This document shows positions 1-36,520 of a DNA stretch of 36,520 nt, one piece after another. Below the pieces are notes generated by a model. It saw nothing but the letters and a program-made list of their open reading frames with translations. It did no database searches and had not been told where the DNA came from. The DNA comes from a virus. The stretch spans positions 1 through 36,520 of IMG/VR virus record IMGVR_UViG_3300040809_000504, one strand, 5' to 3'. Each line of letters begins with the position of its first letter. Position 1 is the first letter of the stretch. Both the position numbers and the translations under genes were made by a program.

Positions 1-127
1 TATGGCTATGGCTCTGGCGATGGCGATGGCTATGGCTCTGGCTATGGCTCTGGCGATGGCTATGGCTATGGCTCTGGATCTGGCGATGGCGATGGCTCTG
101 GCTCTGGCTATGGCTCTGGCTCTGGCT
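1..127. repeat. Exact terminal direct repeat. Bases 1-127 equal 36394-36520 (contig-end overlap, indicating circular or circularly permuted closure).
   Basis: Base-by-base comparison of both ends found no mismatch. The unique length of 36,393 is divisible by 3, so reading frames are preserved across the junction. Confidence 0.95.
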
Positions 128-306
128 CTGGCTCTGGCGATGGCGATGGCGATGGCTATGGCGATGGCTCTGGCGATGGCTCTGGCTATGGCTATTTCTC
201 TGGCTCTGGCTCTGGAGATGGCGATGGCTATGGCTATGGCTCTGGCTATGGCTCTGGCGATGGCTCTGGATCTGGCGATGGCGATGGCTCTGGCTCTGGC
301 GATGGC
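1..306 (+). repeat. Imperfect tandem hexanucleotide array (GGC-TCT / GGC-GAT / GGC-TAT), continuing from 36328-36520.
   Basis: 51 consecutive hexamers lie here. The only departures are GGA for GGC at 76-78, 217-219 and 268-270, and TTC for GGC at 196-198. The array is much more GC-rich than its flanks. Confidence 0.95.
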
Positions 307-309
307 TAA
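1..309 (+). CDS. 3' part of the wrap-around Gly-X dipeptide-repeat protein gene (frame 1, stop TAA at 307-309).
   Basis: Frame 1 reads YGYGSGDGDGYGSG...GSGSGDG*. The TAA overlaps the ninB ATG (TAATG at 307-311), a typical coupling junction. The 5' part with its ATG lies at 36295. Confidence 0.6.
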   Translation, partial: YGYGSGDGDGYGSGYGSGDGYGYGSGSGDGDGSGSGYGSGSGSGSGDGDGDGYGDGSGDGSGYGYFSGSGSGDGDGYGYGSGYGSGDGSGSGDGDGSGSGDG

Positions 310-731
310 TGAATGATTTTAAGTTAACCACCGCTATGCTACCTGAGTTAATAAGACTGCTAAAAGAATTATTAACATCAGGTAAAGCATACAGAGTAAA
401 TGTTAAAGAGTGGCGAGAGCAAAGAAGTCTCTCGCAAAACTCACTTTACTGGCAATGGCTTGGTGTTATATCAAAAGAGTTAAAGCCAAACGACCAAGAG
501 CACAAACCAGAAGTTTGGCATGAGTATTTTAAAAAATATTTTTGCCCAATTAAATTAATATCGATGCCAGCCGGTAAAGATGTTGAAATTAAAAGCACTA
601 AAGTTTTAGATGTTGGCGAAATGTGCCACTACATGACGCAGATACATAACTGGGCGGCTGGTCATATGTTAGCTTTACCGGTACTAGAAAATAGCGATTA
701 CAAACAAAACTTAGATAAACAAGAAAGGTGA
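309..731 (+). CDS. ninB: NinB-family recombination protein (lambda Orf/NinB-like).
   Basis: 140 aa. The motif RSLSQNSLYWQWLGVIS matches lambda NinB RSLDQNRKLWACLGDVS. Its position in a nin-like region alongside ninG supports the call. Confidence 0.8.
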   Translation: MNDFKLTTAMLPELIRLLKELLTSGKAYRVNVKEWREQRSLSQNSLYWQWLGVISKELKPNDQEHKPEVWHEYFKKYFCPIKLISMPAGKDVEIKSTKVLDVGEMCHYMTQIHNWAAGHMLALPVLENSDYKQNLDKQER

Positions 732-27812: not shown

Positions 27813-28803
27813 ATTTAACTATGTTAACAGTTCGCCCGTTTGGGCTAGAGTTTTGAGAGTCAACAATAAGTTTTACCTTTGAATAAAACGTAACATTTAA
27901 ATGTTTTGTTACAGCAACAGAATCACCACACATGACAATCAAATCAGCGCCACTTAAATTTTTAACGCCAATCGAGTTAACTGAAAACTCTTGCGTATTG
28001 CACAGCGTTAATTGTGTCGAGTTGTAATTTGAATAATAAACTTTTGCCGTAACAGTTGCGTTACTTTGAGTTGTATTTTGCAACTTGTAAAAGCTGTACC
28101 AATCAGAGTTTGAACTTGCATAACCGTAACTGACATTATAAGAATAATATGGTGATTCAACATTAAAAAGATATTCGCTCTTTACTGGCAAAGCTAATCC
28201 GTCTGACTTTGCGTTTTTTATAGTTACTTTATAGCTGTCACGCGCATCTTGATTTAAATTATCGAAAACTAACGGGCTATTAATAACAGTGCCAGCCGAA
28301 AAGCTTTCTCGATCACTAATGTCAAATGATACATGATAAAAACCGTTGTCGTAATGATCTGCGTCACTTGATAGCGTAACAGAGCCATCAGAAGCCACCA
28401 GCCCGATTGAGCTGATTAATTTATAACGCAACACCATTTCATTATAATAGTTAATTACAGAGCCTTGTACGCTGTATAAGCCGTAATTAACATCACCATT
28501 AACACGCAATAAATTTGTTTTTAAGCTTAAATTCATACCAGATGGAATTGCTACATCATTTGGCACTTTAAACTTTAAAACATCGCCATCAACACCAACA
28601 AAATCACAATAATCTAGATTGAATGATGACGCGCTTAAATCAGAACCAGTTATCTTAATCAATAAATCGCTATTTGGTTGAATATCTTTTGGCGCAACAA
28701 TAGTAAAACTTGCGTTTTTAACTTTCGAATCACCAAACTTTTCTACCGTTTCAACATTCGCCATTGTCATAAATGACGATAATAATAAAATTAAATATTT
28801 CAT
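27811..28803 (-). CDS. Secreted (Sec signal peptide) beta-rich protein of unknown function.
   Basis: 330 aa. The N-terminal MKYLILLLSSFMTMA|NVE resembles a cleavable signal peptide. The protein is rich in Ser/Asn/Tyr/Val. It is the last gene of the leftward operon. Confidence 0.65.
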   Translation of the reverse strand: MKYLILLLSSFMTMANVETVEKFGDSKVKNASFTIVAPKDIQPNSDLLIKITGSDLSASSFNLDYCDFVGVDGDVLKFKVPNDVAIPSGMNLSLKTNLLRVNGDVNYGLYSVQGSVINYYNEMVLRYKLISSIGLVASDGSVTLSSDADHYDNGFYHVSFDISDRESFSAGTVINSPLVFDNLNQDARDSYKVTIKNAKSDGLALPVKSEYLFNVESPYYSYNVSYGYASSNSDWYSFYKLQNTTQSNATVTAKVYYSNYNSTQLTLCNTQEFSVNSIGVKNLSGADLIVMCGDSVAVTKHLNVTFYSKVKLIVDSQNSSPNGRTVNIVK

Positions 28804-34220: not shown

Positions 34221-35074
34221 AAAAAGATGATTTAACAGTATTAAGTTTATTCGATGGTATGAGCTGCGGCAGAATAACATTAGATAAAATGGATATTACT
34301 CCGAAAGTGTACTATGCAAGCGAGCTAGACAAGTTTGCGATTAAAGAAACGGACGCCAACTGGCCTGATACTATTCAACTAGGCGATGTTACAAAGTGGC
34401 GCAAATGGGATATTGATTGGCCTAGCATTGATTTATTAATAGGTGGCTCGCCATGCCAGGGTTTTAGTTTTGCAGGTAAGCAATTAGCTTTTGATGACCC
34501 ACGTTCTGCATTGTTTTTTGTTTATGTTGATATTCTTAATCACGTTAAGAGTGTAAATCCTAATGTTAAATTCATGCTTGAAAACGTGAAAATGAAAAAA
34601 GAACACCTGAATGTAATTACTGAATATTTAGGTGTTGAACCGGTATTTATCAACTCTGCATTGGTTAGCGCTCAAAACCGCCAGCGTTATTATTGGGCTA
34701 ATTGGGATGTAACCCAGCCAGAGGGTCGTGGGATTTTGCTATCCGACATAATTGAGAGTGGTGCAGTTGATAGAGATAAATCGTTTTGTATTGACGCTAA
34801 TTATTTCAAAGGTGGATCACTTAAAAACTACCTAGAAAAGAAACGCCGTCAAATTGCGTTATGTCAAAGCGAATCTAGATTATGCGTGTTTGAAAAGAAT
34901 GATGAAAGACCAGTCAGAAAGCTTACAGTTACTGAATGCTGCCGATTGCAAGGTGTGCCAGATGACTATTTTAAAGTATCGAGCAACACTCAAGCTTACA
35001 AGATGCTAGGCAATGGCTGGCAATGCGATACTATCGAGCATATTTTTAATTGTTTATTTAATGGTGATATATGA
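34217..35074 (+). CDS. DNA (cytosine-5)-methyltransferase, orphan.
   Basis: Motif I LFDGMSCG, motif IV GGSPCQGFSFAG, motif VI ENV, motif VIII QNRQRYY and motif X GNGW are all present. Confidence 0.9.
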   Translation: MKKDDLTVLSLFDGMSCGRITLDKMDITPKVYYASELDKFAIKETDANWPDTIQLGDVTKWRKWDIDWPSIDLLIGGSPCQGFSFAGKQLAFDDPRSALFFVYVDILNHVKSVNPNVKFMLENVKMKKEHLNVITEYLGVEPVFINSALVSAQNRQRYYWANWDVTQPEGRGILLSDIIESGAVDRDKSFCIDANYFKGGSLKNYLEKKRRQIALCQSESRLCVFEKNDERPVRKLTVTECCRLQGVPDDYFKVSSNTQAYKMLGNGWQCDTIEHIFNCLFNGDI

Positions 35075-35637
35075 ACCGGGCAAAACAAAAAAAATGCAAA
35101 CAATGTAAATCACCATTCACTCCATTTAACTCACTACAAAAAGTCTGCGGCGCTAAATGCGCCAACGACTTTGCAATAGCAGAGCGTGAAAAGAAAGAAG
35201 CTAAAGCAAAGGATGATGATATTAAGCGAGTAAAGCAAAAGCTAAAGCAGTTAAGCATGAAAGATAGACCAAAAGCTTTGCGTGCAGCTCGTGAAGCGTT
35301 TAACGCATTTATTCGATACCGCGACAAAGATTTTCCATGTATAAGCTGCCAGAGACACCACAGCGGCCAATATCATGCTGGCCATTACAAAACAAAAGGC
35401 GCTCACCCTGAGTTAGAATTTAATGAGTTAAATTGCCACAAGCAGTGCGCGCCATGCAACAACCATTTAAGCGGTAACATTGTAAATTACAGGCCAAATT
35501 TAATTGATAAAATCGGGATTGATAAAGTTGAGTTGATTGAAGGTTCTCACGAACCAAAAAAATACACGGTTGATGAGTTGTGGCAAATACGCGATAAATA
35601 CAAAATTAAATTAAAAGAGTTAAAAGCGCTTGACTAA
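35071..35637 (+). CDS. ninG: NinG/Rap-family recombination endonuclease.
   Basis: The protein is collinear with lambda NinG. Shared segments are CKQC...FNAFIRYRDKDFPCISC..GQYHAGHYKT...ELNCHKQCAPCNNHLSGN. Confidence 0.85.
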   Translation: MNRAKQKKCKQCKSPFTPFNSLQKVCGAKCANDFAIAEREKKEAKAKDDDIKRVKQKLKQLSMKDRPKALRAAREAFNAFIRYRDKDFPCISCQRHHSGQYHAGHYKTKGAHPELEFNELNCHKQCAPCNNHLSGNIVNYRPNLIDKIGIDKVELIEGSHEPKKYTVDELWQIRDKYKIKLKELKALD

Positions 35638-35685: not shown

Positions 35686-35913
35686 ATGGCTGTATTCAAA
35701 ACTAATATACCAGAAGATATAAACGATATGATTAAGCAAGCAGCTAAAGATTCGTTCATGTCACGACAAAAGTATATAGAAAAATTAATTCATGATGATG
35801 CTGAGAATCAAGCGCGAATTATGTTAAGAAGTAAAAAATGTCGCACTCGTTGTGGTGCTAAAGATTTAAAAACCGCTGCGCAATTGCAGCAAGAAAATAA
35901 AGGTGAAATATGA
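35686..35913 (+). CDS. Ribbon-helix-helix-like small protein.
   Basis: 75 aa. The N-terminal FKTNIPEDINDMIKQAAKDSFMSRQKYIEKLI fits a beta-strand plus two-helix RHH pattern. Confidence 0.45.
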   Translation: MAVFKTNIPEDINDMIKQAAKDSFMSRQKYIEKLIHDDAENQARIMLRSKKCRTRCGAKDLKTAAQLQQENKGEI

Positions 35914-36311
35914 TTAATTTAGACGATTTAACAATAGGTCAATTAAAGCAAATTCAAGCGTTAAATTTTGGCGCTAACAATGAAAATTTAAAGTCAAAAT
36001 GTAACGATGGTTTAAATTGCATGATCGGAAAAAAAGTAATTGTTAGAACTTATAGCGCTGGCGTTTGGTTTGGTGAGTTGGAGCAAAAAAGCGGCGATGA
36101 AGTAATATTAAAAAACGCGCGCAGAATGTGGCGATGGCACACAGTAAAGTCAATCAGCTTATCAAGCGTGGCAATTCACGGAATAGATCAAAGCAAATCA
36201 AAAATATGTGAAGCAGTTACTAGTCAGTGGCTAGAAGCAATTGAAATTACACCTTGCACAGATACCGCTATCGAATCTTTGGAGTCTGCTAAAAATGCAA
36301 AAGCTCAATAA
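35910..36311 (+). CDS. Conserved phage protein of unknown function.
   Basis: 133 aa. The segment RTYSAGVWFGEL...ARRMWRW...SLS..A is one I recall as widespread in phage early regions. Confidence 0.55.
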   Translation: MINLDDLTIGQLKQIQALNFGANNENLKSKCNDGLNCMIGKKVIVRTYSAGVWFGELEQKSGDEVILKNARRMWRWHTVKSISLSSVAIHGIDQSKSKICEAVTSQWLEAIEITPCTDTAIESLESAKNAKAQ

Positions 36312-36520
36312 AAAACAAATTTACTGCTCTGGCTCTGGCTCTGGCGATGGCTCTGGCGATGGCGATGGCGATGGCTATGGCTCTGGCTCTGGCTATGGCT
36401 ATGGCTCTGGCGATGGCGATGGCTATGGCTCTGGCTATGGCTCTGGCGATGGCTATGGCTATGGCTCTGGATCTGGCGATGGCGATGGCTCTGGCTCTGG
36501 CTATGGCTCTGGCTCTGGCT
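36295..36520 (+). CDS. 5' part of the wrap-around Gly-X dipeptide-repeat protein gene (continues at base 1 after removing the 127-bp duplicate).
   Basis: The ATG at 36295 is in the Gly frame, with GGAG 10 nt upstream. It overlaps the upstream gene by 17 nt. The product reads MQKLNKKQIYC then SGSGSGDGSGDGDGDGYG... Confidence 0.6.
   Translation, partial: MQKLNKKQIYCSGSGSGDGSGDGDGDGYGSGSGYGYGSGDGDGYGSGYGSGDGYGYGSGSGDGDGSGSGYGSGSG
36328..36520 (+). repeat. Hexanucleotide array (GGC-TCT/GAT/TAT), 5' portion.
   Basis: The array starts abruptly after ...ATTTACTGC. There are 32 hexamers to the contig end, and the last 127 bp duplicate bases 1-127. Confidence 0.95.
36394..36520. repeat. Terminal duplicate of bases 1-127.
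   Basis: The two copies are identical over all 127 bases. Confidence 0.95.

Follow-up and report, generated by a model that had tools for sequence, protein, structure and literature searches.

Organization of the repeat locus

The window, that is, the whole stretch of viral DNA analysed here (36,520 nt), carries a tandem array with a period of 6 nt at bases 1-308, and a second piece of it at 36326-36520. The first and last 127 bp are exactly identical (1-127 and 36394-36520), the overlap lies wholly inside the array, and IMG/VR classes the record as one with direct terminal repeats. The window is therefore an assembly closed into a circle of approximately 36,393 bp, in which the array spans the junction, and the 127-bp overlap is an artefact of assembly closure. 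With the redundant copy removed, the array consists of 36328-36393 plus 1-306, provisionally 62 units: 25 TCTGGC, 20 GATGGC, 13 TATGGC, three TCTGGA and one TATTTC, the last of which puts TTC (Phe) in a Gly position once, at 196-198.

The repeat gene begins on the plus strand with an ATG at 36295, preceded ten bases upstream by GGAG (36281-36284). Its 5' part (36295-36520) encodes a leader of 11 residues, MQKLNKKQIYC (36295-36327), followed by repeat units from 36328. The 3' part (1-309, plus strand) contains 51 hexamer units and ends in a TAA at 307-309 that overlaps the ATG of ninB (TAATG). Read over the junction, the frame is continuous from the ATG to the TAA and gives a Gly-X ORF of 135 aa, approximately 90% of which is array. 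The units lie head to tail within the ORF and their length is divisible by three, which is the organization of an in-frame VNTR. As deduced from the sequence, the product is an early (nin-region) phage protein made up of the leader and 62 Gly-X dipeptides in which X is Ser, Asp or Tyr.

Gly-X is certain to be the coding frame. A leader of the type M-x-K-L-N-K and a start that overlaps the upstream gene are conserved in relatives, such a start and leader are found across the relatives on the Gly-X frame only, which also remains open in them, and homologous ORFs are annotated as CDS in GenBank. The alternative frames, which would encode Ala-Met/Leu and Trp-Leu/Arg, were rejected on account of stops in several relatives, for example at array loci L004 and L007. 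In the window, the Trp-Leu/Arg frame (frame +3, bases 3-731) is open through the array with no stop up to and into ninB; relatives have stops in this frame, and its openness here is probably incidental.

Directly upstream of the repeat gene, and overlapping its start by its last 17 nt, is a gene encoding a DUF6948 protein (PF22253, E 2.4e-31; 35910-36311, plus strand). Downstream is ninB/orf, encoding a recombination mediator (phrog_72, E 4.8e-28; 309-731, plus strand). The local gene order is ninG (35071-35637), a 75-aa ORF, DUF6948, the array gene, ninB, a 99-aa ORF and an M15 endolysin, an order that marks out the nin region of a phage of lambdoid type. The named relatives that are nearest by gene infect Gammaproteobacteria, marine ones among them: ninG shares 65% identity with its counterpart in Pseudoalteromonas phage BS5, and the DUF6948 protein is 60% identical to its homologue in Vibrio phage IKEMa6-1, its nearest homologues showing 60-68% identity. 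A megablast comparison of both window ends with 50,697 phage records found no close relative of the window phage.

Two other features of the window were recorded. The Escherichia coli-type Chi octamer, GCTGGTGG, occurs five times, at 1406, 10451, 13967 and 21203 (plus strand) and at 28395 (minus strand), none of them in the array. It is enriched (GCTGGTGG was expected 0.45 times, and none of 100 shuffles reached five) and lies mostly on the local gene strand, which suggests a host whose RecBCD enzyme recognises this form of Chi. Another in-frame tandem array occupies 2109-2281, inside an ORF at 1965-2489; it has an 18-bp period and 9.6 copies with 92% matches, and encodes the hexapeptide G-[D/N]-A-[K/E]-V-[F/Y], which matches phrog_5070 and phrog_7964, both of unknown function.

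A preliminary description of this DNA had drawn attention to codon monotony, to a spike in GC content and to a duplicated 39-bp block, all of which are present. Each residue of the array has essentially one codon: bases 1-306 contain 47 GGC and three GGA for Gly, 22 TCT for Ser, 16 GAT for Asp and 13 TAT for Tyr. The 43 other ORFs of the window mix their codons (GGT.45 and GGC.34 for Gly; TCA.35, AGC.23 and TCT.19 for Ser; GAT.69 for Asp; TAT.58 for Tyr), and under this background usage the monotony of the array would have a log10 P of approximately -54. The units are more uniform than the background codon use, as is seen in concerted evolution. Bases 1-300 have a GC content of 0.607, compared with 0.26-0.49 in all other 300-nt bins and approximately 0.38 for the window background, because the array is restricted to GGC with TCT, GAT and TAT.

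The 39-bp block, which includes the rare TCTGGA unit, occurs exactly at 70-108 and at 262-300 (both plus strand); a third match at 36463 is the copy at 70 again, seen through the terminal overlap. It had been taken as proof that the array grew by duplication of multi-unit blocks, an argument that did not hold up. A repeated block of at least six units appeared in 55% of 5000 shuffles of the units of the window array, so the block is weak evidence and near chance expectation, and a repeated block containing TCTGGA appeared in 3.4% of 20000 shuffles. There was also no excess of identical neighbouring units in the window array (24, compared with 21.3 +/- 3.6) and no autocorrelation at offsets 1-16. 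The order of its units resembles a random deal and carries no direct sign of recent duplication.

The array family and its DUF6948 partner

An exact 27-mer from the array was found in at least 117 IMG/VR contigs, and the matches listed for a codon-neutral form of its nine codons included 122 arrays. The family sample comprises at least about 200 loci with (Gly-[Ser/Asp/Tyr])n ORFs of 10-74 units. A phmmer search of the repeat against 1.84 billion representatives returned 211 weak and heterogeneous low-complexity matches and is uninformative as to the size of the family. Three architectures were seen: a short leader followed by the array, as in the window; a short helix at the N terminus, followed by the array and by a C-terminal domain of approximately 120 residues; and the array together with other domains.

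Several loci carry more than one array. At L015 (1660-2971) there are five tandem paralogous Gly-X ORFs that share the same short leader and a 14-residue tail and differ in their arrays, with no DUF6948 gene upstream of the five. In the phage represented by L086 (3-158), L118 and L126 (9780-10055, minus strand), a second array, basic and aromatic in character, alternates Gly with Phe, Gln, Arg and Leu and lies approximately 2 kb from the Ser/Asp/Tyr array of the same phage.

In the 122 arrays listed from the codon-neutral sample, the flanking DNA ranges from 23 to 68% GC, and each residue is written with its dominant codon 97-99% of the time. The codon set for Gly, Ser, Asp and Tyr is GGC/TCC/GAC/TAC in 58 of them and GGC/TCT/GAT/TAT, as in the window, in 41; the remainder are GGT types (13 arrays), GGG types (seven), a GGA type (one) and GGC with mixed T and C third bases (two). 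Ser, Asp and Tyr lack one common third base in only three of the 122. Different lineages therefore encode the same pattern on scaffolds of their own, which means that the peptide pattern is conserved and not a DNA motif, and that codon monotony is a rule of the family. Even among close DUF6948 relatives the Ser codon is AGT, TCC or TCT, and since these three cannot all interconvert silently, Ser units must have arisen more than once. The third base of X tracks the GC content of the genome (mean flank GC of 0.41 for T and 0.55 for C). GGC serves as the Gly codon in 82% of arrays, irrespective of GC level; this codon is preferred even in AT-rich phages (41 of the 53 arrays with flanks below 45% GC), which hints at some preference at the nucleotide level.

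Variation within the units is confined to two positions. Over 3945 units, the frequency of bases other than the majority base of the array is 0.30 and 0.37 at positions 1 and 2, and 0.03 at positions 3 and 6. The only X residues that are common are Ser, Asp and Tyr, with Asn, His, Phe and Cys as minor ones; GCT (Ala) is hardly ever seen, even though its two variable bases are each common. Prokaryotic low-complexity regions have GGC as the prevalent Gly codon and are depleted in Tyr (PMC6821194), a measure by which the Tyr content of the phage arrays is unusual. Repeated blocks were significant at P <= 0.01 in 38 of 181 family arrays and at P <= 0.05 in 67. In the same 181 arrays (L014-L209), identical neighbouring units were under-represented relative to shuffles (mean z -0.97 +/- 0.10) and a slight excess of matches was found at offsets 2-7; together these indicate that the order of units is not fully neutral.

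When 147 array loci collected by DNA pattern alone were searched with a DUF6948 profile built from the window and its relatives, 124 had a same-strand match in an ORF ending at most 250 nt upstream of the array. The array gene lies directly downstream of DUF6948 in the window and also in phages of Moraxella, Vibrio, Iodobacter and Pectobacterium. In Iodobacter phage PhiPLPE (EU876853.1), a 78-residue Gly-X ORF (L214, 1173-1409) that is unannotated in GenBank overlaps the end of gp84, the DUF6948 homologue. DUF6948 itself has a mean column identity of 76% across relatives. Its structural model has a pLDDT of 67, and its top 50 PDB fold matches are all Sm/LSm proteins, although with weak Foldseek E values of 0.02-0.08; from this model, DUF6948 is predicted to adopt a small barrel fold of the Sm/LSm type. 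The AlphaFold model of the repeat protein has a pLDDT of 36 and no structure, so that the protein, which is also predicted to be acidic, is predicted to be fully disordered. Pfam and PHROG searches with the repeat gave only low-complexity matches (TrAA12) and phrog_18306, a family of unknown function. The latter profile matches arrays at approximately positions 38-137 and the window DUF6948 protein at 153-230, which weakly hints at fused DUF6948-array forms. Literature searches on the peptide motifs and on DUF6948 found no paper describing a cassette of the array and DUF6948.

Array differences between near-identical phages

The preliminary description had proposed a comparison of array length among relatives, with identical arrays in divergent relatives as the outcome that would speak against a dynamic locus. 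The opposite was observed, the arrays proving to be hypervariable. The clearest case is that of the Pectobacterium phages Ymer and Amona, both of which are cultured and completely sequenced. Their flanks show no substitution in 2582 nt (1882 nt upstream and 700 nt downstream), and their array genes measure 222 and 204 nt, respectively. Only the first two and the last seven units are common to both arrays; the interiors, 23 and 20 units long, have no more 5-unit words in common than shuffled arrays do. Phages Ymer and Abuela are identical throughout, from which it follows that the sequence is reproducible. Across seven Pectobacterium isolates the array gene ranges from 162 to 270 nt.

Similar differences were found elsewhere in the family. 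A Moraxella bovis prophage and its near-twin (L210 and L013) are set apart by an indel of 12 nt and by two changes at first positions. L004 and L006 are identical at 797 of 801 upstream bases and have genes of 204 and 276 nt, the latter with a clear higher-order repeat. Within metagenome clusters whose flanks diverge by 1% or less, arrays differ by 6-138 nt, and in metagenome pairs at 0.1-0.9% flank divergence the unit edit distance is 0.40-0.48 per unit, approximately the value for unrelated arrays. Copy number thus differs between conserved flanks in each of these groups of relatives, and by comparison with them the array of the window phage would likewise be undergoing change.

All observed differences between relatives keep the frame. 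The idea of a dynamic locus expanded by slippage or recombination is borne out in that family arrays change rapidly and in frame, and fails in its appeal to the 39-bp block. A contingency locus in the strict on/off sense has to be discounted, as an in-frame unit of 6 nt cannot switch the gene off.

Origin of the array and comparison with known repeats

The reading that we favour, with a probability of about three in four, is that the array is an in-frame hexanucleotide coding minisatellite whose uniformity is maintained by slippage or by recombination out of register, with selection acting on its composition. All units would descend from one scaffold, NNT-GGC, and replication slippage and out-of-register recombination would frequently add, delete and reshuffle them. 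Copies match at four of six bases in every register, which makes slipped realignment and out-of-register annealing or recombination natural causes. Turnover would outpace point mutation, leaving the silent third positions uniform (concerted evolution), and selection on protein composition would keep the mix of Ser, Asp and Tyr at positions 1 and 2. By a rough estimate, some 0.4 unit changes per unit in the metagenome pairs at 0.1-0.9% flank divergence, against at most 0.01 flank substitutions per site, would be enough to account for the approximately 3% silent heterogeneity without selection on silent sites. Selection on the composition of the array protein is evident from the restricted set of residues, the near absence of GCT and the under-representation of identical neighbours. 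As the molecular mechanism we infer slippage or recombination; slippage by single units alone would produce an excess of identical neighbours, and the family shows the opposite. The unrelated interiors of near-identical phages likewise exceed what simple slippage predicts and would take either numerous events or exchange with variants from a pool.

A different account of the monotony is that selection at the nucleotide level, not turnover, fixes the silent positions and that the NNT-GGC sequence itself is needed, possibly in order to avoid Shine-Dalgarno-like GGAG or GGTGA, to draw on one tRNA pool or to keep the mRNA or DNA unstructured. The use of GGC in 82% of arrays whatever the genome GC, and its prevalence in prokaryotic low-complexity regions, agree with this, as does the finding that the minus strand of the array folds worse than all of 100 shuffles (z +3.6). 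The plus strand, however, folds like shuffles (z 0.08), the third base of X simply follows genome GC, GGT, GGG and GGA scaffolds and NNC in place of NNT yield the same peptide pattern, and the measured turnover already accounts for the approximately 3% of minor codons; we regard this account as unlikely. Less probable still is targeted diversification without a reverse transcriptase, which would rewrite positions 1 and 2 or swap interiors and make the array a programmed variable region. It would fit the restriction of variation to those two positions, the conservation of first and last units around differing interiors, and the unrelated interiors seen with 0 of 2582 flank substitutions and in the metagenome clusters. 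Against it, no candidate enzyme and no template copy were found, simple block indels explain some pairs (L088/L090 and L210/L013), and the fact that only 3 of 16 dinucleotides are common, with GCT nearly absent, indicates selection and not random mutagenesis. Since the GGC preference in AT-rich phages and the full rewriting of interiors are only partly explained by the coding minisatellite, these two accounts are kept as minor ones. A diversity-generating retroelement (DGR) was rejected: a search in which control genomes matched found the reverse transcriptase family PF00078 neither in the window nor in five further phage records with arrays, of which three are 90% complete or more, and no second copy of the array that could act as a template repeat was found in the window or in the family loci. 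A known RNA was looked for as well, and no Rfam family matched the window.

The preliminary description had also left room for roles at the DNA level: a hotspot of recombination, protection of a Chi-like kind or weak structures of the G4 type. In the version weighed here, the array would form a G-quadruplex or act in one of the other two ways, and the ORF would be incidental. One strand carries 61 GG tracts spaced 6 nt apart, and the array lies between the recombination genes ninG and ninB, an adjacency that may be coincidental. Such a role is nevertheless the least probable of the explanations considered. The array contains no Chi octamer and no GGG run, where a G-quadruplex built on runs of three or more G would need at least four of them. 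Nor does it show excess single-stranded DNA structure, the plus strand forming hairpins like shuffled sequence and the minus strand folding less well. Moreover, the hexamer varies between lineages that encode the same peptide pattern, whereas the Gly-X frame with its start and leader is conserved across phages, is annotated as CDS in GenBank homologues, and stands beside other frames that are interrupted by stops in several relatives. An assembly artefact, in which the contig was closed inside the repeat and the number and order of units are partly wrong, is more plausible than any of these alternatives, though we still consider it doubtful. In a circle of 36.4 kb, a 127-bp overlap has a chance of approximately 0.7% of falling entirely inside an array of 372 nt, and 36 of 191 arrays of the family run up to the end of a contig; both figures indicate that such arrays disturb short-read assembly. 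On the other hand, every local word of the array must be present in the reads, the frame closes exactly over the junction, and arrays of similar size recur identically in independent samples or isolates (L061/L078, L086/L118/L126 and Ymer/Abuela). An artefact of this kind would in any case touch the copy number and not the nature of the feature.

Considered as a coding minisatellite, the array has its closest described counterpart at the DNA level in the in-frame tandem repeats of Borg elements. These aaTRs are uniform, have units divisible by three and vary in copy number in populations and between relatives (Schoelmerich et al. 2023, PMC9879509); they create intrinsically disordered regions, and their uniformity has been read as a sign of recent formation or fast evolution (PMC9879509). 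The phage array resembles them in lying within an ORF, in a unit length divisible by three, in (predicted) disorder and in rapid change. Borg units are longer and identical throughout, whereas the phage scaffold is fixed at four of six positions with three residue types interspersed; the three main unit types differ at positions 1 and 2, so that the array is not a perfect aaTR in the Borg sense, in which units are identical at every nucleotide. The phage array also makes up approximately 90% of its protein and belongs to a conserved, syntenic family gene, unlike an independently arisen repeat.

At the protein level, other parallels can be drawn. The R region of the Staphylococcus Clf/Sdr proteins, which are large wall-anchored adhesins, is a coding VNTR of Ser-Asp dipeptides with an 18-bp unit and mixed synonymous codons. 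By analogy, the phage product may likewise be a flexible spacer, sharing with the R region a long acidic dipeptide repeat, short in-frame units and length polymorphism; it differs in using one codon per residue, in being nearly all repeat and in being cytoplasmic as far as can be told. Silk fibroin contains (Gly-X)n repeats in which X is Ala, Ser or Tyr, with strong codon bias and a length polymorphism ascribed to unequal crossing-over, and in the phage array, too, Gly alternates strictly with small or aromatic residues, codon bias is extreme and length is polymorphic. Fibroin, however, is eukaryotic, has hierarchical repeats on a kilobase scale, lacks Asp and forms beta-sheet crystallites, while the phage product is acidic and predicted to be disordered.

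Low-complexity tails are also known from Sm/LSm proteins, as the Arg-Gly tails of SmB, D1 and D3 and the Gly-rich C-terminal domains of some Hfq proteins. There too, a Gly-X segment is coupled to a small Sm-like barrel; in the phages the segment has a gene of its own, downstream of the barrel gene and overlapping it (124 of 147 loci). The phage segment is acidic and Tyr-rich, not basic, and the Sm likeness is a prediction from a fold model. Like the targets of DGRs, the phage gene is hypervariable at the first two positions of repeated codons between conserved flanks; unlike them, it has neither a reverse transcriptase nor a template repeat, its length varies as well, and it draws on a set of three residues.

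That slippage can keep coding minisatellites uniform is well known, and the mechanism put forward in the preliminary description is to that extent ordinary. What is not ordinary is the scale, with at least about 200 phage loci from 23% to 68% GC encoding the same Gly-Ser/Asp/Tyr pattern, each on a single hexamer scaffold of its own; the extent of change, with unrelated interior order between 2.6 kb of flanks that lack any substitution, and with no reverse transcriptase present; and the linkage of the array gene to the conserved DUF6948 gene with its predicted Sm-like product. The lengths of such arrays in databases are unreliable, as short-read assemblies break or close within them. The locus offers a convenient natural system in which to measure repeat turnover during phage replication, and a fast strain marker. 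It is conceivable, though improbable in our judgement, that the uniform scaffold is maintained so that out-of-register recombination can continually re-deal the length of the array and the order of Ser, Asp and Tyr, perhaps allowing escape from a host factor that recognises the protein. If that were true, the array would be a diversity generator that works without a reverse transcriptase, in a very widespread early-gene cassette of phages with an Sm-like partner.
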